Shown here: one piece after another, positions 2,560 to 18,861 of the stretch
Position numbering within the stretch: the first letter of the stretch is position 1
Layout: each line of letters begins with the position of its first letter
Source: Acaryochloris marina S15
GTDB taxonomy: Bacteria > Cyanobacteriota > Cyanobacteriia > Thermosynechococcales > Thermosynechococcaceae
Direction of reading: 5' to 3'
Assembly: GCF_018336915.1 (NCBI RefSeq)
Contig: NZ_CP064923.1
Coordinates: 5,460,001 to 5,492,000 of the forward strand
Length of the DNA: 32,000 nucleotides
Position numbers and translations under genes: made by a program
The notes under the pieces: generated by a model
What the model was told of the DNA's origin: nothing
The model's input: the letters and a program-made list of their open reading frames with translations, nothing else
Databases searched by the model: none

Positions 2560-3816
2560 TTAGAGATCATCAGAGACGCCTATTGCTTTCTTTGTGGGCT
2601 CCGGCTCAATATCTCGTTCAGTTTTGAGCCATTGCGTCTGAGGTTGAACAAAAAACTTGAAGTAAATCGGCAATTTCCACAGAAGATAGACCGGAATAGA
2701 TAAAAGAGTCGATACGGGCAAATCCTCTCGTCCAACCTTCATCCAGGCTGCACCTAGGGCAAGACTAAGTAGACTACCAGCAACAGCCAACACCAGAAGG
2801 GGGAGCCATGAGACGAGACCTAGCCCCCAGAACAGGCCAGAAAGACTAAACGTGAACAACCACAATAGAACTAACAGAGATAAGGGCGGCACGGATAAGT
2901 CCAAAACCAGCATCACGAGATCCAATCGTTTCTGTCGCCATGCTTCCCCAAGCAGCTTCGGAACCTGAGTAAAAATCACCTCTAAATGGCCATGTTCCCA
3001 GCGAGACCGCTGACTTTGAGCCGCCTGGTTTTGCATCAACCGTCCGGTGACTCGGCCAGTGGTGATATAAGCGGGAGTATGACCTGCGATCGCAAGATCG
3101 ATCGTCAGCTGCATATCATCCACACACTTACTACCCGCCAACGGGGCCTGCTCCAAAATAGCCCAAGGAAAGGCCATTCCCGAGCCCGCTAAAAGACAGG
3201 GATAGCCTAGCTGAGTAATGCCAACCGACCGCACCCAATTCCGTACTTTAATGGCAAAGACAGAGATACGATCTGTGATGCCACTTTCTGCTTCCACATC
3301 CATTAGATAGATCGCCTGAACCGGGCGCTGTTGCTGCACCCCTTGCTGAGCTAATTGGGCAATCGTTCCTGGCGTCAGCCGACAATCAGCATCAAAAATA
3401 ATCACCACTTCTGGGGGATTCGCCTGTATATGCTTCACTACAAAATCTAAGGCATATCCTTTGCCCCGACAGATCAAGTCCTCCCGCTCCAAAACCTTAA
3501 CCCCACAGGAGCGCGCTATCGTGGCGGTTTGATCCGAACAATTATCCGCAATGACAATAATCTGAGAGGCCTCTGCAACTTGCCCTAGCAGATCTTCCAG
3601 AGTAGACCGAATATTGTCCGCTTCATTATGAGCTGGCACGAGAATATTGAGATCAAGTGGAGGCGGAACCTCACCCTCCTCCTTATCCCCATGCTGGATT
3701 GCAGCAGCTCCGACGAAACATTCCACAGCAAAAACGATACTGGGAATGACAAGGAGTACCACACTACTCCACAGTAGAAGATGACTAAAAAGAGCAATCA
3801 GCCTGCTCAACAACAC
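2560..3816 (-). CDS. Membrane-embedded family-2 glycosyltransferase, processive beta-glycan synthase type
   Basis: There is an N-terminal TM helix followed by a GT-A core: LVPAHNEADNI, VIADNCSDQT, IIFDADCRL (DxD), VDDMQLT and QRSRW (QxxRW motif). About 4 hydrophobic helices follow at the C-terminus. The D,D,D,QxxRW layout is the hallmark of processive GT2 synthases. Confidence 0.85.
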   Translation of the reverse strand: MLLSRLIALFSHLLLWSSVVLLVIPSIVFAVECFVGAAAIQHGDKEEGEVPPPLDLNILVPAHNEADNIRSTLEDLLGQVAEASQIIVIADNCSDQTATIARSCGVKVLEREDLICRGKGYALDFVVKHIQANPPEVVIIFDADCRLTPGTIAQLAQQGVQQQRPVQAIYLMDVEAESGITDRISVFAIKVRNWVRSVGITQLGYPCLLAGSGMAFPWAILEQAPLAGSKCVDDMQLTIDLAIAGHTPAYITTGRVTGRLMQNQAAQSQRSRWEHGHLEVIFTQVPKLLGEAWRQKRLDLVMLVLDLSVPPLSLLVLLWLFTFSLSGLFWGLGLVSWLPLLVLAVAGSLLSLALGAAWMKVGREDLPVSTLLSIPVYLLWKLPIYFKFFVQPQTQWLKTERDIEPEPTKKAIGVSDDL

Positions 3817-3950
3817 AGTAATTTCGCCTTATGAATGAAGAACAAACAGCCTCTGAGGCGAGACTTCCCCCTAGTGTGCCCTTGGCGCTCAATTTACCCC
3901 TCTCTCATTTAGGTAGAGGGCACTGAACACCCGCCAAACAACGATATACC

Positions 3951-6278
3951 TCACTGTCGAGAACTGACTCGAAAAATATCAAACTCATCTTCCAGTTCTT
4001 CAGCATCAAAATAGTCATCATCGACGTATTCCTCCTGGGAGTCACCACTCGCATCTTCGCCAGAGAAATTAGAGACCAGTCCCAAAATGGGCAATCGCGA
4101 TGCCTGTAGCTCCTTCAACATTTTGATCAGGCTAGACTGCTGTGTTTTGCCAATTCCTACTACCATTAACAACCCGTCAGCATTGATCGATAGGAAATTA
4201 GCATCTGCATGTCCTTGGAGATAAGGCGTGTCATAAATGACTAAATCAAACGTACTCTGGAGTTGCTCCATTAAATACTTCATCTGATTCGAGGCCGATG
4301 CCTTATTGGCCTTGGAACCAGTTTGTCCCGCCGTCAGCAGCGACAGATTTTTCTGATAGGGCACCCGTTGAATCAACTGATTTGGATCCAGATTGCTGTC
4401 GATCACATCACTTAATCCCTCTGCATTGGGTACACCTAAGCGGGTATGGAGCTGGGGGAACGCTGTATTGGCATCCACCAACAACACCCGTTGTCCCATT
4501 CGGGCTGCGGATTGGGCCAGATAGAGAGCGACCGTTGTTTTGCCATCCCGAGCCGCCACAGAACTGATCACCAAGGATCGTACAGGCGGTTCCATCGGCA
4601 AAAACCGAATCTTGGTATACAAGGCCTCTGCTGCCTGCAAAAAGGTTTGGTTTTGATGATTCGCCACCGAGGCTTCCCCAAACTCACTGCCAGTCGGGTT
4701 CTTATCAATCGCCTCAATTGCTTGGTTGAACGGTAGACTTCCCAATAACGGTAACCGAGTTTGATCCGTCAAATCATCAATACTGAAAAAGGCATCTCGA
4801 TGTTTTTCTCTCAGCAGCGCAGCCCCTAAACCTAACAAAAAGCCACCCATTACCCCTAAGGCAATTTTTTTAGTCCGACTTTGCTCCGGAAGGACTAAGT
4901 TCCCTTCATCATCGGTTCTCAGCTGCGGTTCAGTCGGAATTTGCCAAGGAATTTCTCTTTGAGCTGATTCAACTTTTAGGGCTTCTCGTTTTAATAACAG
5001 CTGATTCAGGGTTGTGGTATCAATTTCTAGCTGACGACTGAGTTGCTCATACTTGCGCTTAACCGCAGGAAATCGGCGCAGTTGAGCATCCACCGTAGCT
5101 GCAGCTTGAACTGATGCTTGATTGCGTATTTCTAAGACTTGAATTTCATTCAACGTATCGATCATTTGCTGACTTAAAGATCGTTGAATAGAATTTTGAA
5201 ACTGAGGTAAAGAGGCGGCACCAGACGTGCTAGCCCGACTTTGGCTGACGAGCTTACGCGTTTCCTGATTCAACAAAGCCTGCAGATTTTTTTGCCGTTC
5301 CCGCAATTCTTGAACCACCGGGTTAGCATCCGTAAAACGTGCCCGTTCTTGCGCCAATTGAGTCTCAATTTGCTTCAACTGAGTAAGAAGTTCTTGATAA
5401 CGAGGATCTTCGCTGAGAGACGATGCAGCAATCACTTGATTGGGCGCTAGACCGAGCTGTTTTTGCAGATTGGCATACAGTTTTTGCTGGGCTCGCAAGT
5501 TCCGCTGAGTTTCTAGGCGCTGGGTTTCTAGTTCTCTCGCCTGCTTGGCCAATTCCACGCCTTCACTTTCAAGATCGCTAATACGCTCTTGTTGTTGCAG
5601 AGTTTGCAACTGCCCTTCCAGACTATTCACCCGCTGCCTCAGTTCTGGCAACTGTTGCTCAATAAAGGCCACCCCACCCCCAATGCGGCTTTTACGATCT
5701 TCCAGACTATATTTGAGGTACCCGTTGGCTAGCTGTTCGAGCACATAGATGATTTTGATTCGATCGGCTGACTCATAACTGACTCGAATCAGCTTTGTCT
5801 TATCAAACTCGTCCTGACCAATGCGCTCAACCTTCATATCCTTCAGAAGGGCGTTATAGCTCACTGGATATTTCGGTTCAATTTGCTTCAAAATGCCCGC
5901 CAAGACTTTGGGACTTCTGAGCACTCGAATCAGGGTTGAATAATCTAATCCTTCTTCATTGGGAATATTGCCATCACGAGATAAAACAGAGGGATCTGTT
6001 AGCCTACCCGTTGCCGTCACCGGCTCCACCAAAAGCTGGAATTCCCCTTCATAGGTCAAGGGGCGACTGAGCACTAAATAAATGGTTAACCCAGCCACTA
6101 AGACATTAACCCCACCAATCAGCAAAATATTGCGACGGATCAAGCGCCACAATGGACGAACATTCAGTCCCTGTTTGCCACCAGATTGATGATTCTCTGG
6201 ACTTCCTAGAGGCGTATACTCTGACTGCTCATAGGCCTGCATCAAAGATAAGGATTGTTCATCAAGTTCAGATTTCAT
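3951..6278 (-). CDS. Polysaccharide co-polymerase (GumC/Wzz-like) fused to a BY-kinase-type P-loop ATPase (Wzc-like)
   Basis: The N-terminal TM (LIGGVNVLVAGLTIYLVL) is followed by a long periplasmic coiled-coil region and a second TM (ALGVMGGFLLGLGAALL). The C-terminal domain has Walker A SSVAARDGKTT, Walker A' VLLVDAN and Walker B DLVIYDTPY. The acidic tail contains only two Tyr (EEYVDDDYFD). Confidence 0.85.
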   Translation of the reverse strand: MKSELDEQSLSLMQAYEQSEYTPLGSPENHQSGGKQGLNVRPLWRLIRRNILLIGGVNVLVAGLTIYLVLSRPLTYEGEFQLLVEPVTATGRLTDPSVLSRDGNIPNEEGLDYSTLIRVLRSPKVLAGILKQIEPKYPVSYNALLKDMKVERIGQDEFDKTKLIRVSYESADRIKIIYVLEQLANGYLKYSLEDRKSRIGGGVAFIEQQLPELRQRVNSLEGQLQTLQQQERISDLESEGVELAKQARELETQRLETQRNLRAQQKLYANLQKQLGLAPNQVIAASSLSEDPRYQELLTQLKQIETQLAQERARFTDANPVVQELRERQKNLQALLNQETRKLVSQSRASTSGAASLPQFQNSIQRSLSQQMIDTLNEIQVLEIRNQASVQAAATVDAQLRRFPAVKRKYEQLSRQLEIDTTTLNQLLLKREALKVESAQREIPWQIPTEPQLRTDDEGNLVLPEQSRTKKIALGVMGGFLLGLGAALLREKHRDAFFSIDDLTDQTRLPLLGSLPFNQAIEAIDKNPTGSEFGEASVANHQNQTFLQAAEALYTKIRFLPMEPPVRSLVISSVAARDGKTTVALYLAQSAARMGQRVLLVDANTAFPQLHTRLGVPNAEGLSDVIDSNLDPNQLIQRVPYQKNLSLLTAGQTGSKANKASASNQMKYLMEQLQSTFDLVIYDTPYLQGHADANFLSINADGLLMVVGIGKTQQSSLIKMLKELQASRLPILGLVSNFSGEDASGDSQEEYVDDDYFDAEELEDEFDIFRVSSRQ

Positions 6279-6992
6279 CGTGACCTCAAAGTAGAAGGCT
6301 CAGGACCCTGCACACATCAAAATACTAACTTGCAAAGCGATGGGGAAATGAATTTACAAGCCTGAGTTAGTTCTTGCACACCATATTTTAGGATTTATCT
6401 GCTGTTTCCACGCAGCTTACATCAACACTTAGAGTCTTTCTGGAGAGAATATTTCTTTGATGGGGTTCAACATTACCCGTGTCTACCCTTAGCTCCTTAC
6501 TTTCTGAGATAAAGGTGTCTCTTAATTGTTTAATGCATAGTATAACGAGGTATTTTCAAGAGAGTAAAACCACTAAAATTTCTAAAAGCCTTATGGGTTA
6601 AGACTTCTCACCTTATGCTCAGTGCAATAATCCATAATGAAAATTTTTAATTCTTGTGAATAATATTATATTTAGACTTCTATAATTTGTCTCAACTCAT
6701 TATCAGTAAACATCTCATGCCCTGGGAGTAGTTTTGTGACAAGGTATTTTATTGAGTGTGGAAGTAGGGTATAAACTATTTAGTGAATCTAACTTCTTTT
6801 TTCCCTAAGATTCATATTAGAATTACTCCATTCGATAGAATCTTTTCATTTGATTTCCTTTTTGTTGCCACTTCTATTTTCTTTGGCTATCCTTATGGAG
6901 TGTAATTTAGATCACAGCATTTCTTGTTTTACAAAACAGAAGTGTGGGGGCATCCTAACTAAAACCTATATTTTCTACAAGCGAGAGCACTC
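6279..6992. promoter_or_regulatory. Long AT-rich divergent intergenic region between the wzc-like gene and the exported-protein genes
   Basis: This is 714 bp with no convincing ORF and is visibly more AT-rich than the flanking genes. It must hold the promoters for both divergent units. It contains a TGT-N8-ACA dyad (tgttttacaaaaca, 6925-6938) about 55 bp upstream of the ATG at 6993. Confidence 0.6.
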
Positions 6993-7580
6993 ATGGATAA
7001 ATTAAGAAGAGTGGCTAAATTGTCGATTGTGGTTGGTGTTGTTTCCCTGTGCCCAGCAATTGTTACTCCTCAAGCAGCCTCTGCAGAGTCTATTTCTCCT
7101 ACGACTGCAGTAGGACAAGCCCCTCAGAATTACGGTATTGTTCGATCGACAGGCCTTAACACTCTTGAAATTAGACATTTGAGTGGTGGCTATCGGACCT
7201 ATTCTGTTTCTAGCGATTTAACGGCTTCTATGGCCCTGAGCCCAGGCGATTTTGTCGCTTACAATGCTGATGCCAGCGGTACGTTAACGCAACTTCAGCC
7301 CCCTAGAATTGCTCGCATCTTTGAAGGGACTATCTCTAACATTCAAGGGAATCAAATTACGGTTGTTGCTCCAGACGGTTCTTCTTTGACCACAACCGTT
7401 GCGGCTAACTCCATTAATCGACTAGAGCTATCTCCTGGAAAGGGCTTAAGTGTGACTCAATACGAGGGCCTGAGCGCTACTAAAGTATGCTGTATTTCTA
7501 AGTTTACGCAACAGCCTCCGGTGCTCCTACCCCCGGAACCCACTGCTGCACCGCCTCAACCCATCCCAGCCTTATGGTAG
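6993..7580 (+). CDS. Exported hypothetical protein (signal peptide, Pro-rich C-terminus)
   Basis: It has an ATG start and an N-terminal signal-like sequence (KLSIVVGVVSLCPAIVTPQAASA/ES). The C-terminus is PPVLLPPEPTAAPPQPIPALW. I recognise no family. Confidence 0.6.
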   Translation: MDKLRRVAKLSIVVGVVSLCPAIVTPQAASAESISPTTAVGQAPQNYGIVRSTGLNTLEIRHLSGGYRTYSVSSDLTASMALSPGDFVAYNADASGTLTQLQPPRIARIFEGTISNIQGNQITVVAPDGSSLTTTVAANSINRLELSPGKGLSVTQYEGLSATKVCCISKFTQQPPVLLPPEPTAAPPQPIPALW

Positions 7581-7683
7581 GCTCACTCCTCCTCAACGCC
7601 TCAAGCAACAGCTGAGGCCTGTCTGTCCATCAAGCTATAGCCCTTCTTCAGATTTACCCTGGGGGAGTAGGGAGTACAAGCAA

Positions 7684-8409
7684 ATGAACAAAATGAGTAG
7701 ACATCCATCTTCAACGATTGGCCTCGCCATTACCCTAGCAGGAGTCATGCAGACACTGCCCCTGCATGCAGCTCAGCTCAACTTTGACCAGCCAGAAACT
7801 GAGGGCAGTCTAACGACTCCTGAGGCCATTAGTAATTGTGCCCAAGAGCCGGATCCAAATTTAACGTCTCAGTCTAATCATGGGGTCTCTAATCCGTCCC
7901 AAACCCTCATCTTGGGACCGAATCTCATTGCTAATAATATTGCGACAGCGAATGATGCGGGTTTATTCACATCAGAGTCGCCCTTAGTTGCTCAATCCAT
8001 CGTAGATGATTGCTGTGTAGTTGGAGACACAGCCATTGGTGGCCCTTCTGCCTTTGAAGATGCTGCATTTTGCGGACTGGGTGGCGTACCTCCAGCAGGA
8101 GGCGCTGCACCTGGTGGCTTTCCTTTTCCTGTACTGGCCGCTTTAGCACCAGCAGCAGCAGTTCCCTTTATAGCAACGGGTGGAGATCCGGAACCGACTC
8201 CAACACCCACGCCGACTCCAACTCCAACTCCGACTCCAACACCCACGCCCACACCCACTCCAACACCCACGCCCACTCCAACACCCACTCCAACGCCGCC
8301 TCCTACCAAGCCTCCAGAGAAAGTACCTGAGCCTTCTACAATGGCTGGGTTACTCATTGGCGGTGCTATATTCGGCATCTATAAACGGAGAAAGAAATCA
8401 AAAGACTAG
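7684..8409 (+). CDS. PEP-CTERM sorting-domain exported protein with a (Thr-Pro)17 linker
   Basis: It has a signal peptide (IGLAITLAGVMQTLPLHAAQ). The C-terminal VPEPSTMAGLLIGGAIFGIYKRRKKSKD gives the PEP motif, a TM helix and a basic tail, which is the PEP-CTERM/exosortase sorting signal. A (TP)17 tract precedes it. Confidence 0.85.
   Translation: MNKMSRHPSSTIGLAITLAGVMQTLPLHAAQLNFDQPETEGSLTTPEAISNCAQEPDPNLTSQSNHGVSNPSQTLILGPNLIANNIATANDAGLFTSESPLVAQSIVDDCCVVGDTAIGGPSAFEDAAFCGLGGVPPAGGAAPGGFPFPVLAALAPAAAVPFIATGGDPEPTPTPTPTPTPTPTPTPTPTPTPTPTPTPTPTPTPPPTKPPEKVPEPSTMAGLLIGGAIFGIYKRRKKSKD
8197..8298 (+). repeat. In-frame hexanucleotide tandem repeat encoding (Thr-Pro)x17
   Basis: There are 17 consecutive ACN-CCN units with varied third positions. 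A higher-order 18-nt unit, actccaacacccacgccN, recurs at 8197, 8233 and 8257. The complementary strand reads (GV)n, which explains the spurious ORF at 7992..8378. Confidence 0.95.
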
Positions 8410-8436
8410 CGATTAAGGAAGCTAGCTTTACTCCTT

Positions 8437-8479
8437 AAACAAATAGCGACGGCTTTTGAAAGGCCGTCGCTATTTGTTT
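8437..8479. terminator. Bidirectional intrinsic-terminator-like hairpin between the PEP-CTERM gene and sqdB
   Basis: A perfect 17-bp stem pairs aaacaaatagcgacggc (8437-8453) with gccgtcgctatttgttt (8463-8479) around a 9-nt loop. A/T runs flank both sides. It lies between two convergent stop codons. Confidence 0.75.
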
Positions 8480-8507
8480 CAATTCAGTTAGATAACAGGT
8501 AATCTAT

Positions 8508-9671
8508 CTATTTACGCCATTTAGACGTACAGAGAATCTTGGAGTGATCACACCGATCTTTATACTTCGCTGCAATTTCAGTCACTTCTTTCATCAGGCC
8601 AACATCTAACTTAGTCGGTTGCAGACCTAAATCCATAAAGCACTTATTCTCAACATATAATTCGTTTTCCGCTGCCTCAGTTCTGGGATTCTCTAAGTGA
8701 TCAATCTTAGCCCCAGTAATGTCTGCAATGATTTTGGCTAGATCTCTCACACGGTGAGTTTCGGTCATTTGGTTAAAGATTTTGACCCGCTCTCCAGATT
8801 CAGGGGGATTCTCAACGGCCAGTTGAATACACTTAACCGTGTCCTGAATATGAATAAATGCTCGGGTCTGACCACCCGTACCATGCACCGTTAAGGGATG
8901 ACCAATGGCGGCCTGCATCAAAAATCGGTTCAGAACAGTACCGTAATCACCGTCATAATCAAAGCGATTAATCAGGCGTTCATCCTGCTTGGTCTCTTCT
9001 GTATTGGTTCCCCAGACCACACCTTGGTGTAAGTCGGTGACTCGAATCTTGTCATTCTTGTTGTAGTAGTAGAAGAAGAGCTGATCCTGAGTTTTGGTCA
9101 TGTGATAAACACTGCCCGGATCCGCAGGATAGAGGATTTGTTTTTCAACCACCTCACCAGTATCAATCACCACCTGAACGTCGAGATAGCCTTCAGGGAT
9201 CTTCATGCCGGCAGTACCGTAGCCGTAAACGCCCATGGTGCCGAGATGAACCACATGGATATCCAGGCCAGACTCCACAATGGCAGCTAAAACATTATTC
9301 GTAGCGTTGAGGTTGTTATTAACCGTATAACGCTTTTGCCGAGATGACTTCATGGAATACGGGGCAGCCCGCTGCTCAGCGAAATGTACCACCACGTCAG
9401 GGCGATAGGTGCACAACAGATTTAAGAGCCGATCATATTCCGCCGCAATATCGAAGTTATAGAACTGAATATGTTTGCCTGTTAAGTCTTGCCAGGTTTT
9501 CAGGCGAATCGAAATCGGACTAATGGGGGTCAACGAGTTGGTCTCTAACTCGTTATCAATGTTGCGCCTGGATAAATTGTCCACAATAACAACATCATGG
9601 CCAAGTTTGGATAGATGTAGCGCAGTTGGCCAGCCGCAGAACCCATCACCGCCCAATATTACAATGTTCAT
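8508..9671 (-). CDS. sqdB: UDP-sulfoquinovose synthase
   Basis: The N-terminus MNIVILGGDGFCGWPTALHLSKLGHDVVIVDNLSRRNIDNELETNSLTPI is the characteristic SqdB/SQD1 Rossmann start. Length (387 aa) and the SDR-like core (YHMTK) also fit. Confidence 0.92.
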   Translation of the reverse strand: MNIVILGGDGFCGWPTALHLSKLGHDVVIVDNLSRRNIDNELETNSLTPISPISIRLKTWQDLTGKHIQFYNFDIAAEYDRLLNLLCTYRPDVVVHFAEQRAAPYSMKSSRQKRYTVNNNLNATNNVLAAIVESGLDIHVVHLGTMGVYGYGTAGMKIPEGYLDVQVVIDTGEVVEKQILYPADPGSVYHMTKTQDQLFFYYYNKNDKIRVTDLHQGVVWGTNTEETKQDERLINRFDYDGDYGTVLNRFLMQAAIGHPLTVHGTGGQTRAFIHIQDTVKCIQLAVENPPESGERVKIFNQMTETHRVRDLAKIIADITGAKIDHLENPRTEAAENELYVENKCFMDLGLQPTKLDVGLMKEVTEIAAKYKDRCDHSKILCTSKWRK

Positions 9672-11061: not shown

Positions 11062-11282
11062 CTCGGCAACGGTTATGCAGACGGACTTTAGGGTAATCCG
11101 TAGGGAGATGACCGCCTCCAATCCTACCGATAAATGGATTCGCTACCGGAAAACGCAACAGAATGTTGTCATTCCCGCCCAATTCCACTGATTTTTTAGG
11201 CAGAAGAGTAAATAAAGACTGTCGCTTCATTCCAGACGAAGGGCATTCTAGGGCCATAAATAGACCCATCTCTGTTAGTCAG

Positions 11283-13619
11283 ATGTCGAAAAGTCGACGA
11301 TACCGACCATTTTTACTCTTATTTGCGATTGGCATATTTCTAGGATTCTTAACTGCCACCCATCCTAGGCTGATCGCCAATCCTCACCTGTTCCATGCCC
11401 AAGCCTACTGGACTCCAACCGTCACTCAGACGGTGGATCAAACCTCTTTGGCGGGCACCTGGGAATTTCAAGCTGACCCACAGCCGACCGCTGACAAGCT
11501 AGTGCTGCAACCGAGTGGACCCAATATTCCACCTATTCCCCAGGGCCAATGGCAAGAGATTGCAGTGCCTTCCAACTGGTACTTACAAGGGCAAGATATA
11601 TCGGGGGTGGTCTGGTATCGCCATCAGTTTCGCGCCAATGAGCGATGGCGTCAGAAGCTGACTCGTCTAGTGTTTTCGGGGGTCGATTACACCGCAGACG
11701 TTTGGCTCAATGGTCAGTATTTAGGCTTTCATGAGGGCTACTTTCAGCCCTTTTCCTTTGATGTGTCTAAGGCTCTGATGTTTACGGGCCAGAATGAATT
11801 ACTGGTGCGGGTCAATAGCCCTTTGGAGCCTCAAGGCCAGGATTGGTCCCTCCGCAAACGCTTAATTAAAGGCATTTTTAGTCACCACGATACCCGTCCA
11901 GGTGGAGCTTGGACCGATCGCGGCCAAGAGAAAAATACCGGAGGTATCTGGGCCCCGGTATTTTTGCAAGTCTCCGATCAGGTCGCCATTGAAACGATTC
12001 AAATCACCCCGGAGTTAGACGCCGACTACCAACAGGCCACGGCTAAGGTGGATCTAGTAGTCAATTCTCCAGGACTGGGCAAGACGAATCTTGATGCCCA
12101 TGTGCAGTTGGTGCCAGAGAATTTTTCGGGGTTACCCATTGGACCTATTCGCGTGAAACGCACCCTGCATCAAGGGGCTAATCACCTGAAGCTACAGATT
12201 CCTGTAGATGACCCGAAACTATGGTGGTCTTGGGAGCATGGAGACCCCAATTTATATCGCCTTACGGTGCAGTTGGCCGATGGCAGTCGACTGCTGGATA
12301 AAGCGTCAGATGTATTCGGATTTCGCACCATTCAGTTTGACCCGACCGAAAAAATCTGGCGACTGAATGGTCGCCGCCTATTTTTGCGAGGCACCAATTA
12401 CATTGCCACCCAGTGGCTCAGTGAAATGACGCCGGAGAAATACCAGACGGATATTGACCTGATGAAAGCGGCCAATATCAATACGGTACGAGTCCATGCC
12501 CATATCATCGGCAAGGATTTTTATAAGCTGTGCGATCGCAACGGCGTATTCATCTGGCAGGACTTTCCTTTGCAGTGGGGCTATGAAGATACTCCCCAAT
12601 TTCTCCAGGAAGCTACCCGCCAAGCCAAGGATATGATTGGCTACCTTTACAACCATCCTTCGATTCTGGCCTGGAGTCTGCATAATGAGCCGCCCTGGGA
12701 TGCGGACTGGATGAAGTACAAATACAAGACCTACGATCCAGAGCAAAATCGCGAGTTAGACGCCAAGCTATTGGCCAACCTGCAGGGAGAAGACCCCACC
12801 CGCCTCTTACATCCCGTGTCTACCGTCGGGGAGCATCCTTGGTTTGGTTGGTATTCCAACACCTTCTATAAATATGCAGAACCGACCACAGAAGCCATTA
12901 TTTCCGAATTTGGCGCTCAAGCTTTACCGCATCTAGAGTCCCTACGGCGCATCTTTACGGAAGACGAGCTATGGCCGGATACAGAAGCGGAATGGGACAA
13001 GTGGCTGTATCACAACTTTCAGCGCCATGAAACTTTCAATATTGCCAAGGTGCCCATGGGGAATACGACCCAGGAGTTTATCGATAATACCCAACAGTAT
13101 CAATCCCAACTGATTCAGTTTGCCGCCGAAGCCTATCGCCGCCAGCGTTATCAGCCCGTCTCATCGATTTTTCAATTTATGTTTGTGGAGGATTGGCCTT
13201 CTGTCAATTGGGGCATTGTTGATTACTGGCGACAGCCCAAACCCGGCCATGAGGCTCTGAAATGGGCCTACCAGCCCGTATTGCCTAGTATTGCTTGGCC
13301 TCAACTCACCTGGACTTTGGAGGAAACCGTAGAGCTGGAACTCTGGGCCATCAATGATTTATGGAAGGACTATCCAGAGGCAACCTATACCTATACTCTC
13401 CGCCAAGGCCAAAAACGCCTTAAATCTGGCAAAAGTAGGATTAATTTAACCGCAGATAGCAGCCAGCCTGTCGATAAGATTTTTTTTCAGCCCCAAAACT
13501 TGGGCAACTACACCGTCACAGCCACGATCAAAGATCGGCTAGGGACGGTATTAGGGGAAAACCAGTTTACGTTTGATGTGATTGATCGGGGGGATCAAAC
13601 CAATGAGTCGACGTCGTAA
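11283..13619 (+). CDS. Glycoside hydrolase family 2 protein with an N-terminal membrane anchor
   Basis: The GH2 sugar-binding region is present (VFSGVDYTADVWLNGQYLGFHEGYFQPFSFDVS). So is the TIM-barrel region (FLRGTNYI, NINTVRVHAH, ILAWSLHNEPPW with the NE acid/base motif). The likely start is the ATG at 11283 (MSKSRRYRPFLLLFAIGIFLGFL signal/anchor) rather than 11163. Confidence 0.85.
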   Translation: MSKSRRYRPFLLLFAIGIFLGFLTATHPRLIANPHLFHAQAYWTPTVTQTVDQTSLAGTWEFQADPQPTADKLVLQPSGPNIPPIPQGQWQEIAVPSNWYLQGQDISGVVWYRHQFRANERWRQKLTRLVFSGVDYTADVWLNGQYLGFHEGYFQPFSFDVSKALMFTGQNELLVRVNSPLEPQGQDWSLRKRLIKGIFSHHDTRPGGAWTDRGQEKNTGGIWAPVFLQVSDQVAIETIQITPELDADYQQATAKVDLVVNSPGLGKTNLDAHVQLVPENFSGLPIGPIRVKRTLHQGANHLKLQIPVDDPKLWWSWEHGDPNLYRLTVQLADGSRLLDKASDVFGFRTIQFDPTEKIWRLNGRRLFLRGTNYIATQWLSEMTPEKYQTDIDLMKAANINTVRVHAHIIGKDFYKLCDRNGVFIWQDFPLQWGYEDTPQFLQEATRQAKDMIGYLYNHPSILAWSLHNEPPWDADWMKYKYKTYDPEQNRELDAKLLANLQGEDPTRLLHPVSTVGEHPWFGWYSNTFYKYAEPTTEAIISEFGAQALPHLESLRRIFTEDELWPDTEAEWDKWLYHNFQRHETFNIAKVPMGNTTQEFIDNTQQYQSQLIQFAAEAYRRQRYQPVSSIFQFMFVEDWPSVNWGIVDYWRQPKPGHEALKWAYQPVLPSIAWPQLTWTLEETVELELWAINDLWKDYPEATYTYTLRQGQKRLKSGKSRINLTADSSQPVDKIFFQPQNLGNYTVTATIKDRLGTVLGENQFTFDVIDRGDQTNESTS

Positions 13620-15348
13620 GTTAAGGACGCTATTGATCTGTTTTGTCGCCTCAGTCGCCCTCACGATTGGGATTGCCAAATGGGTCTGTAGCCAGCAGCT
13701 CGCTGAAGACTTTGCACCTAAAATTGTCCTCAACCAAGTTGGATATCGCGCCAATTGGGACAAGGTGGCCTTTTTACTCAATGCGGAAGATAATGCACCT
13801 ATTAAAACAAAGGTCGTTGACCATCAATCTGGGAAAACAGTAGCGACGATCCAGCCTGGGTCTGCTGAATTAGATGAACAGAGTCGCGATCGCATCCAAA
13901 CTCTAGACTTCTCCAAGGTCAAAAGATCCGGTGAATACTACCTGCAAACAGGTGAGTTAAAATCCGTTCCCTTCCAAATTGGCCAAGATATTTATCAAGA
14001 CACCTTTACCAAACTCCTGCGCACCTATTATTTACAGCGTTGCGGCACGGTTATCTTTGACCCTATTACCGGGATTTATCATCCTCCCTGCCATATCAAA
14101 GATGCCTTGTTAGCCCATGATGATGCCTTCCACAAAGCAGGCGACACCGTTCAAAGCCAGGGCGGCTGGCATGATGCAGGAGACTATGGCAAGTATGTGG
14201 CGACCACAACCGTCACCATCGGTAGCTTATTCAGCCTATACGAGCAATATCCCCAGAACTTTACCGACGGCCAGTTAGATATTCCCGAAAGTGGTAACAA
14301 GGTTCCCGATTTACTAGACGAGATGAAAGTGGGTCTAGACTGGCTACTCTCCACTCAACGCCAAGATGGCGGTGTCTATCGCAAGCTCTCAGGTAAAGCC
14401 TGGCCCATTGGCAAAGCGCCCCATGAAGACCAGCAGCCCCGCTATTTATATGGTGTGTCTACGCCTGAAACCGGAAAATTTGCGGCGGTGATGGCCATGG
14501 CAGGTCGGATTTACGAAGAGAGTCAACCCAAACTAGCCCAAACATATCTGGATTCAGCTCGCCTGGCTTGGGACTATTTGCAGACCCAAGACAAAATGCA
14601 AGAGAGCTGGATTGATGGAGATGATAGCGGTTCCGGTAAGTATCTCCAGTCGGAGATTGACATCGAAGACAGTCTGAAAACCGATATTGACGATCGATAC
14701 TGGGCCGCCGCCGAATTATTCCTCACCACCGGAGACTCACAATATGAGCAATATCTGGTGGACCATTTCGACCAGATGCCCTTTAACCTCTATGAGTGGA
14801 AGGATGCCTCAACCCTAGGGATGGTGGATTATTTGCTCTATGCCAAGGCAGACCCCAACCAGCTCAAACCCCAAATCCGCGAAAAGCTCCTCGCCCGTGC
14901 CGATCAAATTATGGAGCGGGTCGAAGGAAGTGGCTATCGCCTCGCCAACCATCGCTTTATTTGGGGTTCCAACAAAATGACCGTCGAAGAAGGCATTACC
15001 TTAATCCATGCCTATCGCCTGACCCAAGACGCAAAATATAAAGCCGCCGCCCTCGATCAGCTCCACTACATGATGGGCCGCAATCATTTTGATCAAACCT
15101 TTGTCACGGATGTGGGCACCCATCCCGTGGAAAATGTGAACCATCTGTTCGCTAGGGCCAAGAAAATTAAAATTCCGGGGTTAGTCGTAGGTGGCCCGAA
15201 TGACGGAGCCCAGGATAATATTGCTCCCAAAGGGTTAGGCATTCGCAGCTATCTCGACAGCGAAAAGTCCTATGCCACCAATGAATATGCCATTGACTAC
15301 AACGCGCCCCTAATAACTCTTTTGGGAATGTTGTTAGAAACGTCTTAG
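13603..15348 (+). CDS. Glycoside hydrolase family 9 endoglucanase-like protein (N-terminal anchor + Ig-like domain + GH9 catalytic domain)
   Basis: GH9 signatures GGWHDAGDYGKY and YATNEYAIDYNAPL are present, along with an (alpha/alpha)6-type core. The likely start is the ATG at 13603 (MSRRRKLRTLLICFVASVAL). That start overlaps the last 17 nt of the GH2 gene. Confidence 0.88.
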   Translation: MSRRRKLRTLLICFVASVALTIGIAKWVCSQQLAEDFAPKIVLNQVGYRANWDKVAFLLNAEDNAPIKTKVVDHQSGKTVATIQPGSAELDEQSRDRIQTLDFSKVKRSGEYYLQTGELKSVPFQIGQDIYQDTFTKLLRTYYLQRCGTVIFDPITGIYHPPCHIKDALLAHDDAFHKAGDTVQSQGGWHDAGDYGKYVATTTVTIGSLFSLYEQYPQNFTDGQLDIPESGNKVPDLLDEMKVGLDWLLSTQRQDGGVYRKLSGKAWPIGKAPHEDQQPRYLYGVSTPETGKFAAVMAMAGRIYEESQPKLAQTYLDSARLAWDYLQTQDKMQESWIDGDDSGSGKYLQSEIDIEDSLKTDIDDRYWAAAELFLTTGDSQYEQYLVDHFDQMPFNLYEWKDASTLGMVDYLLYAKADPNQLKPQIREKLLARADQIMERVEGSGYRLANHRFIWGSNKMTVEEGITLIHAYRLTQDAKYKAAALDQLHYMMGRNHFDQTFVTDVGTHPVENVNHLFARAKKIKIPGLVVGGPNDGAQDNIAPKGLGIRSYLDSEKSYATNEYAIDYNAPLITLLGMLLETS

Positions 15349-16500: not shown

Positions 16501-18861
16501 TTAGGTTTCGTCGAAGGATAGGTTGGCGAAATGTTCTTGCAGGTAGCGATGGACGAAGACATAGCTGCCGCCTGTGCGATAGATAAATACGCAATCTTCG
16601 GCTTGTTGGAAAAAAGTGACGAAATTCCAAGGGATTTGCTTAGTTTGGCAGAGGACTAAACGCATTGACAAGTGTTGAGTACAGGGGTCTATTCCTTCGT
16701 TGTTGAGGATTAAAAAGAGTGGTAACACCATGAATAAGGCAATAATGAATCTCACTACAAATGGTTCTAGGAACAGAGGTAAAATATTTACCAGAGTAAA
16801 ACAAAGAACAATCATAAAAACAAGCGACACGATAACCTGTATCACTATCGTTTTTAAAGATCCCCAAATAACTTGATTAGGAAAAGTTCGATCTAGAATA
16901 TCGACTTTTAGCCCTCCAATCAGCTTGATACTTAGCCCTCCAATCAGCTTGATACTCTCCCCGAGAATCAATCCGAAAATTAGCCCGAGAATCAGGCCTC
17001 CAATCAGCCCGTAACTCTGCATGAAAAGCCCCCCGAAACTCAGCGCGTATGTCAGATAGCTTTCAAGGAGCTTCCAACTTCTTCGTCCCGTTTTGCGAGG
17101 CATTGGATTTTCTATAGCTTTTACTGAATACATCTTATCTCGCCTAACACTCAGCCCGAAAATCAATCCGATTAGCCCGAAAATTAGCCCAGAAATTAGT
17201 CCTCCAATTAGCCCAAAAACCCTTCCAATTAGCCCGAAAATTAGCCCGAGAATTAGCCCCCAAGCCAGCCCATAAAGCAGCCTATAAAGCCATTTAGTCC
17301 TTTCAGCTTCTACTAGATCCATCCCAACATACAGCCCTCCATACAGCCCCATTAGCCCTCCAAATAGCCCTCCGACAATACCTCCAAATAGCTCTCCGAC
17401 AATACCTCCAAATAGCCCGCAAATCAATCCGAAAATCAATCCGAAGATTAGCCCAAGAATCAGCCCAAAAAGCCATTTAGTCCTTGCTGTCTCCAGCCAA
17501 TCTTTGGGTTTCATTCGTTCGATCAAGAACTCTTTCCCCGCTCCCGTTTTCTTCGCTATTCCTTGCAGCCAGTGCAACATTTGTTGCTGTTCCGGCTCAG
17601 GTAAAGACCGCTGGGCAAACATTCGCTCAATATAACGATCAAACAGGAGTTTTAAGCGTTGGTCTTTAGGCAAATCCAGTAATTCCTGAGCTGGACGATT
17701 GCGATAGGCCAAAGTCAGAATCCATAGAAAAAGCGGCTTATTCACTAAGTCCCGTAAGGAGGGATCTGCCCCTAAAGCAGTTGCAATCCCTACTAACGCT
17801 TCCCCTCCCTCTTGTAAGTAATCATCTACCTGCTTTTCTGACAAAGGTTGAATATACACTGCTGCCTGAAACTCTTCTAAACGAGTGATCAAGGCTTGAT
17901 AGTCTACAATTCGGCAACACAGTGCGATTTCGATATTGCCAAACTTTTGCCGAAACTGATTCAATGCTTCCACACAAGCATCGCGATCTTGGGGTTTGAC
18001 TTCATCCAAACCATCCAGCAGCAAGGTCCATTTTTCCTGCTCCAGCCAAGTTTTTCCCACTTCTTTGCGAACTTGATATTGCTGCCATAACTCCTCCAGC
18101 AGCCACTGGGTAAAGGCCAGCGTTCCATCGTTAGGGAACTGCTGAGTGCCCCAAGCTGACAAATTCAACACAATCGGGATAGGCTGTTTTAGCTCTTGAA
18201 AATCAGTCGCTTCTAATAAATCTTGAGCCAGCTCCAAAAGCAAGGTTGTTTTCCCGGCACCCGGCTCCCCCAGCACCAACAACGTTCCGCCACCCCCCAA
18301 ATTAGCAAATCGATCCAACAGCCGCGTGCCAGGGGGCAACACCTGTTTCTCTTCTCCCGCCCTTTGCCACTCCATCCCCACCATCTCAGGCCGCTCTTCC
18401 AATCCCACTGCAATCCGAGCCTGCTCATACAGAGAGTTTTTCAAAACCCCATCAATCCATTTCACCCCCACCTTATCCATCAAGATTTGACGATTGTCTT
18501 GCCACCGGGCTTCATCCAATTCAGATGCTGTCAATATCGAGGGCTTGCGGACAAGCTGCACCACATCCACCACCATCATGCCCAGTAGCCCCACCAGCAC
18601 AACGCTATACAGCAAGCCAATCACTTTGGCAGTTGGGTTATCACTGCTAAAAGCAGCCATTGCCTCTGGAAAGACTCTGCCAATAAACCCCAACACGGCG
18701 GTTTCAACCACCAGCTTCAGCCATCGTCCCCATTTGGCTTTTTTCTGGTCAGCCGCAACTTGCCCCACCACCCAGCCCAACACCACCGGAATCAATACCG
18801 TGAACAGAGGCACCACAACCGTCTGAAAATTCGGATCACTCAGCAGTTTTTGAAGCATCAT
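16501..18861 (-). CDS. Membrane-embedded NACHT-family STAND NTPase with a C-terminal glycine-zipper transmembrane array
   Basis: Three N-terminal hydrophobic spans precede the NACHT core, which has Walker A LLVLGEPGAGKTTLLLELA and Walker B WTLLLDGLDEV. Then comes roughly 290 aa of GLIxGL/GGxxG hydrophobic repeats. The protein ends with FIYRTGGSYVFVHRYLQEHFA, a motif typical of the helical module after a NACHT core. I could not recognise any WD40, TPR or LRR repeats. Confidence 0.85.
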   Translation of the reverse strand: MMLQKLLSDPNFQTVVVPLFTVLIPVVLGWVVGQVAADQKKAKWGRWLKLVVETAVLGFIGRVFPEAMAAFSSDNPTAKVIGLLYSVVLVGLLGMMVVDVVQLVRKPSILTASELDEARWQDNRQILMDKVGVKWIDGVLKNSLYEQARIAVGLEERPEMVGMEWQRAGEEKQVLPPGTRLLDRFANLGGGGTLLVLGEPGAGKTTLLLELAQDLLEATDFQELKQPIPIVLNLSAWGTQQFPNDGTLAFTQWLLEELWQQYQVRKEVGKTWLEQEKWTLLLDGLDEVKPQDRDACVEALNQFRQKFGNIEIALCCRIVDYQALITRLEEFQAAVYIQPLSEKQVDDYLQEGGEALVGIATALGADPSLRDLVNKPLFLWILTLAYRNRPAQELLDLPKDQRLKLLFDRYIERMFAQRSLPEPEQQQMLHWLQGIAKKTGAGKEFLIERMKPKDWLETARTKWLFGLILGLIFGLIFGLICGLFGGIVGELFGGIVGGLFGGLMGLYGGLYVGMDLVEAERTKWLYRLLYGLAWGLILGLIFGLIGRVFGLIGGLISGLIFGLIGLIFGLSVRRDKMYSVKAIENPMPRKTGRRSWKLLESYLTYALSFGGLFMQSYGLIGGLILGLIFGLILGESIKLIGGLSIKLIGGLKVDILDRTFPNQVIWGSLKTIVIQVIVSLVFMIVLCFTLVNILPLFLEPFVVRFIIALFMVLPLFLILNNEGIDPCTQHLSMRLVLCQTKQIPWNFVTFFQQAEDCVFIYRTGGSYVFVHRYLQEHFANLSFDET
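16909..16956 (-). repeat. Perfect in-frame 24-nt tandem duplication inside the NACHT gene
   Basis: tagccctccaatcagcttgatact occurs twice back to back (16909-16932 and 16933-16956) with 24/24 identity. It encodes SIKLIGGL-SIKLIGGL. Confidence 0.95.
17155..17262 (-). repeat. Degenerate 12/9-nt periodic repeat encoding GLIF/GLI glycine-zipper units
   Basis: The plus strand reads agcccgaaaatc aatccgatt agcccgaaaatt agcccagaaatt agtcctccaatt agcccaaaaacc cttccaatt agcccgaaaatt agcccgagaatt. A 17-nt match, aaagccatttagtcctt, at 17286-17302 and 17469-17485 is 183 nt apart. That marks a duplicated 61-codon module beginning (E)RTKWL. Confidence 0.9.
17370..17417 (-). repeat. Second in-frame 24-nt tandem duplication (23/24 identical) inside the NACHT gene
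   Basis: ctccgacaatacctccaaatagcT (17370-17393) is followed by ctccgacaatacctccaaatagcC (17394-17417). Together they encode the GGIVGELF/GGIVGGLF units. Confidence 0.93.

Follow-up and report, generated by a model that had tools for sequence, protein, structure and literature searches.

A stretch of 32,000 nucleotides from Acaryochloris marina S15 (contig NZ_CP064923.1, positions 5,460,001 to 5,492,000; hereafter the window) carries four genes that form two divergent two-gene units. The minus strand encodes a Wzc/GumC-like protein (775 amino acids; positions 3951..6278; profiles, hydropathy and an alignment to Wzc), a predicted polysaccharide co-polymerase (PCP) of type 2a, followed by an EpsU-like inner-membrane glycosyltransferase of family GT2 (418 amino acids; 2560..3816; open reading frame (ORF) list, profiles and a structural model). 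Across a divergent, AT-rich spacer of 714 bp with 38% GC (6279..6992), the plus strand encodes an exported protein, which we call EXP1 (195 amino acids; 6993..7580), and a PEP-CTERM protein (241 amino acids; 7684..8409). We consider it fairly probable, though well short of certain, that the wzc-GT2 gene pair is a conserved sub-module of a Wzx/Wzy-type exopolysaccharide (EPS) pathway whose remaining genes lie elsewhere in the genome.

Three lines of evidence point in this direction. The sole full-length profile match of the GT2 enzyme is to EpsU, its orthologues reside in complete Wzx/Wzy gene clusters, and members of its family are recurrently fused to WecG/TagA/CpsF transferases; judged from sequence, the enzyme thus most likely adds a sugar to a lipid-linked repeat unit. 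An earlier note on this DNA had already placed the four genes, a QRSRW motif, the 714-bp spacer and the PEP-CTERM signal, and the ORF list and profile searches found each of them at the same position. The note had, however, also read the locus as a minimal or hybrid synthase pathway, and the three lines of evidence just given argue against this reading.

In the mechanism that we propose, the two units would belong to a dispersed Wzx/Wzy-type EPS system. The GT2 enzyme would act at the membrane interface and add a single sugar to an undecaprenyl-diphosphate-linked repeat unit, probably right after a step of the WecG/GumM type. The cytoplasmic P-loop domain of the co-polymerase would probably bind ATP, and the polymer would leave the cell via a Wza-type channel; other parts of the genome would supply Wzx, Wzy, Wza and the priming transferase. 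EXP1 and the PEP-CTERM protein would be exported by the Sec system, and the latter would be processed by a cyanoexosortase that is likewise encoded elsewhere. Finally, the PEP-CTERM protein, and perhaps EXP1, would associate with the polysaccharide or the cell surface.

The wzc gene lies 134 bp upstream of the GT2 gene (intergenic region 3817..3950, minus strand), and since both genes share a strand they are probably co-transcribed. The gap contains one weak hairpin, but terminator-like sites around the locus are no more common than in shuffled sequence. An SMC gene, with its stop at 2558, converges on the GT2 gene, and a SqdB-like gene (8508-9671) forms the other flank of the module. The window has 21 long ORFs that do not overlap, among them one for a DUF389 protein that runs off its 3' end. 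Scanned with Pfam or NCBIfam, these yielded no match to exosortase, Poly_export (Wza), Polysacc_synt (Wzx) or Wzy_C, and tblastn with a genuine cyanoexosortase A as query found no match within the 32 kb. Both results agree with the earlier note, which had reported these genes as missing from the window. Their absence is consistent with a dispersed layout of the kind documented for the xss cluster of Synechocystis, which relies on a distant chromosomal OPX gene (PMC8205485), and for Nostoc punctiforme, in which a single crtB gene is found at a Wzy/Wza/Wzc locus while 35 PEP-CTERM genes are dispersed (PMC12188702). Across the whole window, neither Rfam at gathering thresholds nor a tRNA scan gave a match. 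The GT2 enzyme shares 83% identity with a protein from Acaryochloris sp. CCMEE 5410, by which the source of the DNA is recognizable from its sequence as an Acaryochloris-like cyanobacterium. An exact-sequence look-up with the GT2 gene retrieved a single record, a 9.9-kb short-read contig (L001) that is identical to the window.

The GT2 glycosyltransferase and its family

Pfam assigns the GT2 enzyme to generic families alone (Glycos_transf_2, Glyco_tranf_2_3 and Glyco_trans_2_3). The NCBIfam match to EpsU (NF041865; E 1.7e-51) extends over residues 38-402 of the enzyme and positions 21-391 of the 394 positions of the model. EpsU (MXAN_7422) of Myxococcus is encoded beside the PCP EpsV (MXAN_7421) in an EPS pathway that is genetically Wzx/Wzy-dependent, and it is one of five repeat-unit transferases; when any of the five is inactivated, the cells lose EPS synthesis or type IV pilus-dependent motility (PMC7484181). 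The model for the synthase PgaC_IcaA (TIGR03937) reaches 39.6 bits against a cut-off of 422.3 and covers the N-terminal residues 55-158 alone, and none of the Pfam or NCBIfam models for cellulose (CelA, Cellulose_synt), Chitin_synth, NodC or hyaluronan synthases (HAS) matches. An NCBIfam model for an XrtP-associated glycosyltransferase matches the N-terminal half weakly (E 1.4e-9).

A scan of one genome per species recovered more than 590 relatives of the GT2 enzyme, and we analysed the best 80 loci, all of which are cyanobacterial and encode proteins with 43-66% identity. Neighbouring genes within 10 kb were clustered for 81 sources, the window and the duplicate contig L001 being counted along with the 80 loci. 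The neighbours included a Wzc-like PCP (35 of the 81 sources, at a distance of no more than about 4 kb), one cluster of GT4 glycosyltransferases (28/81), a WecG/TagA/CpsF transferase (19/81), a second GT2 enzyme (18/81), Wzy_C (17/81), a hexapeptide acyltransferase (16/81), Wza (12/81) and Wzx (10/81). Wzx and/or Wzy were present in 22 of the loci. Fifty-one loci extend for 5 kb or more to either side of the GT2 gene; of these, 27 hold a core gene of the Wzx/Wzy pathway and 34 some labelled polysaccharide gene.

Heterocystous strains possess an operon-like array that reads WecG-PHPT-Wzc-acyltransferase-GT2-Wzy-second GT2-further genes-GT4-Wzx, with the GT2 orthologue in fifth position and a PHPT that scores 402 bits with TIGR03025, above the cut-off. 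Triads of wza, wzc and the GT2 gene occur in L016 (Leptothermofonsia), L055 (a Synechococcales genome) and L073. In L033, L036, L072 and L025, the GT2 orthologue and a Wzc of the type found in the window are accompanied by GT4 and Wzx, with a Wzy-like gene as well in the first three of these loci and a STAS-Bac_transf primer in L033.

Gene fusions tie the GT2 family to the same route. An exhaustive profile search yielded 2,155 representative clusters at E<=1e-30, and about a dozen of the top 150 family members are much longer than 400 amino acids. A C-terminal WecG/TagA/CpsF domain was present in eight of the ten long members that were scanned (P0238, P0240, P0241, P0245, P0253, P0270, P0278 and P0354). 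Enzymes of the WecG/TagA/GumM family add the second sugar to undecaprenyl-diphosphate-linked intermediates (Und-PP-linked acceptors). Hence, the fusions, together with the frequent adjacency of the two genes, argue that the GT2 enzyme works on the same lipid-linked assembly line as WecG. Three of the fusion proteins (998-1120 amino acids) bear a further unannotated region of about 400 amino acids, and another family member, P0233, is fused to a PqqD-like domain instead.

The earlier note had ascribed to the GT2 enzyme the D,D,D,QxxRW signature of processive synthases, and this signature is borne out when 25 cyanobacterial homologues (46-83% identity) are aligned: D91, D95, D142-x-D144, D234 and Q269-R-S-R-W273 are invariant. 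D142-A-D144 (3385..3393, minus strand) is the DxD metal/diphosphate motif, D234 in VDDMQL (3115..3117, minus strand) the presumed catalytic base, and Q269-R-S-R-W273 (2998..3012, minus strand) the Q(R/Q)xRW acceptor-binding motif. In a weak match (E 0.03), a profile built on the C-terminal half places VDDMQL on TED of BcsA, QRSRW on QQRGRW and the next helices on BcsA residues 400-475. Past the last amphipathic helix, the enzyme has a C-terminal motif, W396-L-K-T-E-R-D402 (2611..2631, minus strand), in which W396, T399, R401 and D402 are invariant. This WxxTxRD motif may, by analogy, be the counterpart of the gating loop (FxVTxK) of the synthases, and its low pLDDT in the structural model is compatible with a mobile loop; HMMER gave no direct alignment of the motif to the BcsA gating loop.

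Hydropathy and an AlphaFold model (pLDDT 87, pTM 0.86) suggest an N-terminal transmembrane (TM) helix at about residues 13-31, a GT-A domain (56-262), an interface helix with QRSRW and two to three C-terminal membrane helices (300-331, 338-356 and an amphipathic helix at 374-390). These three clear TM segments and one amphipathic helix speak for a repeat-unit transferase. The best Foldseek match when normalized to target length is PcManGT (PDB 6yv7; TMt 0.61), which is also the top PDB sequence match (E 1e-7). According to this model, the enzyme has a small cellulose-synthase-like fold with all catalytic motifs, a fold that by itself leaves processivity undecided. The earlier note had recommended a comparison with the synthase families by hidden Markov model; in it, EpsU is the sole full-length profile and no synthase model matches, whereas the structural model best matches BcsA and HAS.

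The Wzc-like co-polymerase

Two TM segments of the Wzc-like protein (residues 52-70 and 471-489, from hydropathy) enclose a coiled-coil periplasmic domain, and a MinD/ParA-type P-loop domain follows at about residues 550-740. The protein aligns to residues 347-712 of E. coli Wzc, P-loop domain included, and it scores 22 bits with Pfam Wzz, slightly under the cut-off of 25.5. Its sequence features support assignment as a PCP-2a co-polymerase. With TIGR01007, the model for polysaccharide biosynthesis tyrosine autokinases, it reaches 96.5 bits against a cut-off of 108.05, which its relatives in L045 and L016 pass.

Alignment to Wzc locates a Walker A region, SSVAARDGKTT (residues 572-582; 4533..4565, minus strand), in which the lysine is present, and a Walker B region, FDLVIYDTPY (677-686; 4221..4250, minus strand). 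The Walker A' region, RVLLVDANTAFPQ (597-609; 4452..4490, minus strand), which aligns to LLIDCDMRK of Wzc, is degenerate: it reads D-A-N-T-A (VDANTA) in place of the D-x-D-x-R of canonical bacterial tyrosine (BY) kinases. Moreover, the tail has no tyrosine cluster. The last 35 residues contain two tyrosines, one of which is a phenylalanine in the 83% identical protein of L082, and the tails of the L045 and L080 proteins contain none; an acidic EDEFxxFR end is conserved in place of the cluster among the genus-level relatives.

The PCPs encoded beside GT2 orthologues fall into two groups. In the group of the window protein (n = 17; distinct members 38-51% identical to it), all 17 proteins have DxN at Walker A' and none has a tyrosine cluster, while Walker A and B are kept. 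This DxN subgroup spans loci L016, L025, L033, L036, L045, L055, L059, L072, L073, L080 and others. The canonical group (n = 18; 21-25% identical to the window protein) is found beside the GT2 gene in heterocystous strains; it mostly has DADMR or close variants, none of which has lost the second Asp, and its tails are mostly of the YFYY type. In Synechocystis Sll0923, Walker A, A' and B are canonical and the YYNNRYYDR tail is phosphorylated, and some cyanobacterial Wzc homologues without a Tyr-rich region have been described (PMC6562117).

The degenerate Walker A' and the missing conserved tyrosine cluster make tyrosine kinase activity of the window protein doubtful. It is probably an ATP-binding PCP-2a protein that operates independently of a Tyr-cluster cycle. 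The earlier note had described it as a Wzc-like co-polymerase and BY-kinase. The co-polymerase half of this description stands, given the PCP-2a topology and the Walker A and B motifs; the kinase half does not sit well with VDANTA at Walker A', the lack of a Tyr cluster and a TIGR01007 score below the cut-off.

Exported proteins, exosortase links and further genes of the window

The PEP-CTERM protein consists of a signal peptide (by inspection), a region with a DDCC motif, an Ala/Gly/Pro-rich segment, a (TP)n linker and a sorting domain at residues 214-238. The sorting signal, VPEPSTMAGLLIGGAIFGIYKRRKK (8323..8397, plus strand), scores 28.9 bits with TIGR02595 against a cut-off of 16, so that the PEP-CTERM gene of the earlier note proved genuine, and 20.7 bits with PF07589, which equals the cut-off. 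The domain fits the generic TIGR02595 and has no match to the cyanobacterial subclass TIGR04155; it is the sole PEP-CTERM-like C-terminus in any reading frame of the window. The (Thr-Pro)n linker is encoded by an imperfect 6-bp tandem repeat (8194..8294, plus strand), and it is at this hexanucleotide repeat that the short-read contig L001 breaks. In L082, a Ser/Thr/Pro-rich stretch replaces the linker, whose length and composition thus vary between strains.

EXP1 comprises a signal peptide, two small OB-like beta-barrels (residues 46-102 and 106-167), an ATKVCC motif, a Pro-rich tail and a C-terminal PIPALW. It has no Pfam or NCBIfam match. The 11 homologues that were detected all come from Acaryochloris-like sources, and the family is restricted to the Acaryochloridaceae; in its alignment, ATKVCC is nearly invariant and the C-terminal PIPALW invariant, and relatives from Altericista-like sources end in PVRGMW or PIRGLW. 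The AlphaFold2 model is moderately confident (pLDDT 67), and its Foldseek matches, to the double OB domains of Mpa, to ModG and to cold-shock domains, have TM-scores of about 0.29, so that the model carries the fold assignment no further than two small beta-barrels. The paired cysteines (ATKVCC in EXP1 and DDCC in the PEP-CTERM protein) and the C-terminal tryptophan may represent a sorting or cross-linking feature.

When the 714-bp spacer is compared with its counterpart in L082 (6791-7509), about 120 bp by the EXP1 start and about 55 bp by the wzc start are conserved and the middle has diverged. On this comparison, the conserved ends are candidate promoter or 5'-UTR elements. The spacer (6279-6992) contains no Rfam family, and promoter-like sites around the locus do not rise above those of shuffled sequence.

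The four genes recur as a block, with the PEP-CTERM and EXP1 genes divergent from wzc and the GT2 gene, in L082 and L083 (GT2 64% identical). L082 is collinear with the window over the whole stretch from DctP to SMC. The block is also present in Altericista (L045; Wzc 51% identical) with different flanking genes, and EXP1, wzc and the GT2 gene are kept in L080, whose PCP is about 51% identical to that of the window. L045 and L080 have no SMC gene in their flanks and carry GNAT or phosphomannomutase genes instead. The earlier note had invoked a co-occurrence of PEP-CTERM proteins with EPS loci, and the retention of the block together with wzc and the GT2 gene in relatives with other flanks upholds this point.

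Screening of multi-TM ORFs in the loci of GT2 orthologues uncovered a genuine cyanoexosortase A gene, crtA, in L019 (TIGR03763, 320 bits). Here, crtA, the gene for a CrtA-associated protein (TIGR04153, 211 bits) and the GT2 orthologue follow one another on one strand with small gaps (6560-9348). Six further CrtA loci were sampled, and a GT2 orthologue (48% identical in L084 and L085) lies beside crtA and its TIGR04153 partner in three of the seven, namely L019, L084 (4682-6852) and L085 (2607-7534). In L085 a gene for a cyano_PEP/DUF4114 protein lies between crtA and the GT2 gene, with a STAS-Bac_transf gene downstream. The other four CrtA loci are without the GT2 gene and bear an HpsJ-family gene or unrelated genes; conversely, crtA was found in one of the 80 loci of GT2 orthologues. 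The link is thus recurrent, yet not general, since the three positive loci are related to each other. Block conservation and crtA adjacency fit the known association between EPS and PEP-CTERM proteins, which have been proposed to stabilize the contact that EPS makes with the surface of the cell (PMC12188702). A literature search found no report of an exosortase in Acaryochloris.

Several further genes of the window adjoin the module. The SqdB-like gene (8508-9671, minus strand) encodes a putative UDP-sulfoquinovose synthase that scores 353 bits, under the equivalog cut-off of 575; it has no adjacent sqdX, and its two neighbours are the PEP-CTERM gene and a gene for a DctP-type TRAP solute-binding protein. 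A GH2 gene (11163-13619, plus strand) and a GH9 gene (CelD_N and Glyco_hydro_9; 13582-15348, plus strand), which overlap by 38 bp, lie some 3 kb away from the PEP-CTERM gene. We considered both as parts of the module and rejected them, as they are absent from the syntenic L082; one GH9 gene adjoins a GT2-Wzc-Wza-Wzy cluster in L039. A 786-amino-acid NACHT NTPase (16501-18861, minus strand), whose C-terminal half is made up of glycine-zipper-like hydrophobic repeats (GLIFGLI...), is encoded just upstream of a pair of kinase genes and of an SbcC/LmuB-like ATPase (23356-26097). The kinase pair (19193-21097 and 21401-23278, plus strand) are tandem paralogues in which a Ser/Thr kinase domain is preceded by an N-terminal zinc ribbon and followed by a C-terminal FGE-sulfatase (SUMF1-like) domain. 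Their kinase halves match PADLOC PD-T4-6 (E 1e-98 and 1e-91), which may reflect generic kinase similarity, and the PADLOC matches of the distal window genes were set aside as having no bearing on the EPS module.

Competing explanations and relationship to known systems

Several observations weigh against assigning the wzc-GT2 pair to a Wzx/Wzy-type pathway. With 175.5 bits, the GT2 enzyme falls far under the EpsU cut-off of 700 and is hence a distant EpsU homologue by sequence, no equivalog; to our knowledge, EpsU itself has never been characterized biochemically. Fold and motifs are of the processive synthase type: a Foldseek search of the PDB with the model of the GT2 enzyme returned BcsA (E 3.8e-13, TMq 0.64) and the Chlorella-virus hyaluronan synthase (TMq 0.62). 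The membrane part is highly conserved, with E32, W319, W358, Y377, K381 and the C-terminal WxxTxRD invariant in the alignment of 25 homologues, and a VPPLSLL segment near-invariant (S313 and L314 invariant), a degree of conservation that exceeds the needs of a simple anchor. Among the 51 loci flanked by 5 kb or more on each side, 17 hold no labelled polysaccharide gene at all, and the neighbours in the loci were identified by simple ORF calling and by annotating a single member of each cluster. The remaining pathway genes and any exosortase were not located within the 32 kb of genome, and no Acaryochloris protein was present among the 100 CrtA-like matches listed, a word-limited search that is inconclusive as to absence.

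Much of this would suit a true processive, translocating synthase (of the BcsA, HAS or Salmonella O:54 WbbF type) that feeds its polymer to the adjacent PCP and a distant Wza and possibly extends a lipid-linked primer, a synthase/PCP-OPX hybrid in the sense of the earlier note. The invariant set of D, DxD, D and QxxRW, the whole-chain extent of the structural matches to BcsA and hyaluronan synthase, the alignment of VDDMQL, QRSRW and the next helices to BcsA and the possible likeness of the invariant WxxTxR to a gating loop would all be explained, and streptococcal HAS, NodC and PgaC have about the same length as this enzyme of 418 residues. In addition, a PCP adjoins the GT2 gene, or sits one gene off, more often than Wzx or Wzy are nearby, and PCP adjacency is found in Myxococcus as well. 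We nevertheless hold a synthase to be unlikely. In 22 loci, the GT2 gene stands in operon-like clusters together with Wzx, Wzy and priming transferases, the WecG/TagA/CpsF fusions of the family recur, and no synthase model matched, the PgaC_IcaA hit being confined to the N-terminus (39.6 vs. 422 bits). There are about three predicted TM helices against the six channel-lining ones of BcsA, a mannosyltransferase with a small fold, PcManGT, matches about equally well (TMt 0.61), and no partner of the BcsB, PgaD or PilZ type is present. Less probable still is a variant in which the enzyme is no routine repeat-unit transferase and instead a dedicated partner of PCP-2 proteins that work without tyrosine phosphorylation, either as a PCP-coupled polymerizing or translocating enzyme or as the maker of a glycan that serves as exosortase acceptor. 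Such pairings of a GT2 enzyme with a PCP are seen with the Tyr-less DxN Wzc proteins of cyanobacteria and with EpsV/EcpK of Myxococcus, and some cyanobacteria add crtA and a PEP-CTERM gene.

The exported proteins invite two further explanations. The first places the GT2 enzyme in the service of the PEP-CTERM/exosortase system, either to build a glycan or glycolipid that a cyanoexosortase attaches or to glycosylate PEP-CTERM proteins, with the Wzc-like protein as a scaffold. Three of the seven CrtA loci have the GT2 gene beside crtA, in an operon-like order in L019, and a PEP-CTERM gene is divergent from the GT2 gene in L085 and from wzc-GT2 in the window; NCBIfam contains exosortase-associated GT2 families, to one of which, the XrtP-associated glycosyltransferase, the enzyme shows its weak match, and the long (TP)n stretch is a typical O-glycosylation-type linker. 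Even so, we regard this as very unlikely, because the three loci that join the gene to crtA are closely related (their CrtA proteins share 59-61% identity with that of L019) and perhaps go back to a single event, four CrtA loci do without the GT2 gene, and crtA is present in one of 80 loci where Wzx/Wzy genes are present in many. Moreover, the enzyme would face the cytoplasm, like all GT-A enzymes of family GT2, which makes direct glycosylation of exported proteins unlikely. According to the other explanation, the exported pair is functionally unconnected to wzc-GT2 and the adjacency is synteny inherited within one family, a possibility of low probability that we nonetheless take seriously. 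EXP1 has just 11 detectable homologues, all Acaryochloris-like, the collinearity of L082 from DctP to SMC attributes part of the conservation to relatedness, and the 35 PEP-CTERM genes of the N. punctiforme genome are scattered. It is more difficult to reconcile with the block in Altericista L045 and with EXP1-wzc-GT2 in L080, both of which are kept despite different flanks, and with the independent adjacency of the GT2 gene to PEP-CTERM and crtA genes in L085 and L019.

A dispersed Wzx/Wzy-type pathway thus remains our preferred reading, and it implies that a QxxRW motif is no proof of a synthase-dependent pathway. A large and widespread family of small GT2 enzymes with the cellulose synthase fold works inside Wzx/Wzy-type loci, often fused to WecG. 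This raises the question of what role a membrane-embedded, synthase-like glycosyltransferase has in a Wzx/Wzy pathway and why it stays beside the co-polymerase. It can further be asked if the Tyr-less DxN subgroup of Wzc is the fused counterpart of phosphorylation-independent pairs of a PCP-2 protein and a pseudokinase. The adjacency of the GT2 gene and crtA offers a concrete handle on the tie between PEP-CTERM proteins and EPS in cyanobacteria.

Among characterized systems, the EpsU/EpsV part of the Myxococcus EPS pathway is a distant relative of the locus and resembles it in its mode of action; the locus is also similar to the catalogued Wzx/Wzy-type EPS loci of cyanobacteria. With EpsU/EpsV of Myxococcus xanthus it has in common the full-length EpsU match and a glycosyltransferase gene directly beside a PCP-2 gene, but there is no Wza, Wzx or Wzy near the window genes. 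EcpK, the partner of EpsV, is a pseudokinase without tyrosine phosphorylation (PMC12004946). The Tyr-cluster-less PCP of the window is reminiscent of the EpsV/EcpK pair without being the same: EpsV has no P-loop domain and EcpK has lost all motifs, whereas the window PCP has a fused P-loop domain with Walker A and B. Its topology, with two TM segments, a periplasmic coiled-coil and a C-terminal P-loop domain, is that of Synechocystis Sll0923 and E. coli Wzc, and it departs from the canonical BY-kinases in VDANTA at Walker A' and the lack of a conserved tyrosine cluster.

The GT2 enzyme shares with BcsA, class I hyaluronan synthase, PgaC and NodC the GT-A domain, the D/DxD/D/QxxRW motifs and an interface helix followed by TM helices. 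It differs from these processive synthases in that no family model matches, in having about three TM helices, in the lack of PilZ, BcsB or PgaD, in its Wzx/Wzy context and in its WecG fusions. With PcManGT of Pyrobaculum calidifontis it has in common a small GT-A domain with few TM helices; PcManGT is, however, archaeal, 15% identical, and alignable by sequence over the N-terminal 110 residues alone. The cyanobacterial PEP-CTERM/cyanoexosortase systems (CrtA, and CrtB of Nostoc punctiforme) likewise combine a Sec signal and a sorting domain with EPS neighbours, and the window differs from them in having no exosortase within its 32 kb. A PEP-CTERM EPS locus of the XrtA/EpsH type (Haft 2006) was considered and rejected, since TIGR03007 scores 80.5 against 278.85 bits and TIGR03018 87.8 against 230.65 bits. 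Judged by these comparisons, the GT2 enzyme falls outside the processive synthase families, the Wzc-like protein outside the canonical BY-kinases and the locus outside the XrtA/EpsH type, and a claim to a new type of pathway is unjustified. Less ordinary are the persistent pairing of a synthase-fold GT2 enzyme with a PCP across phyla, the Tyr-less DxN subgroup of Wzc and the occasional adjacency of the GT2 gene to crtA.

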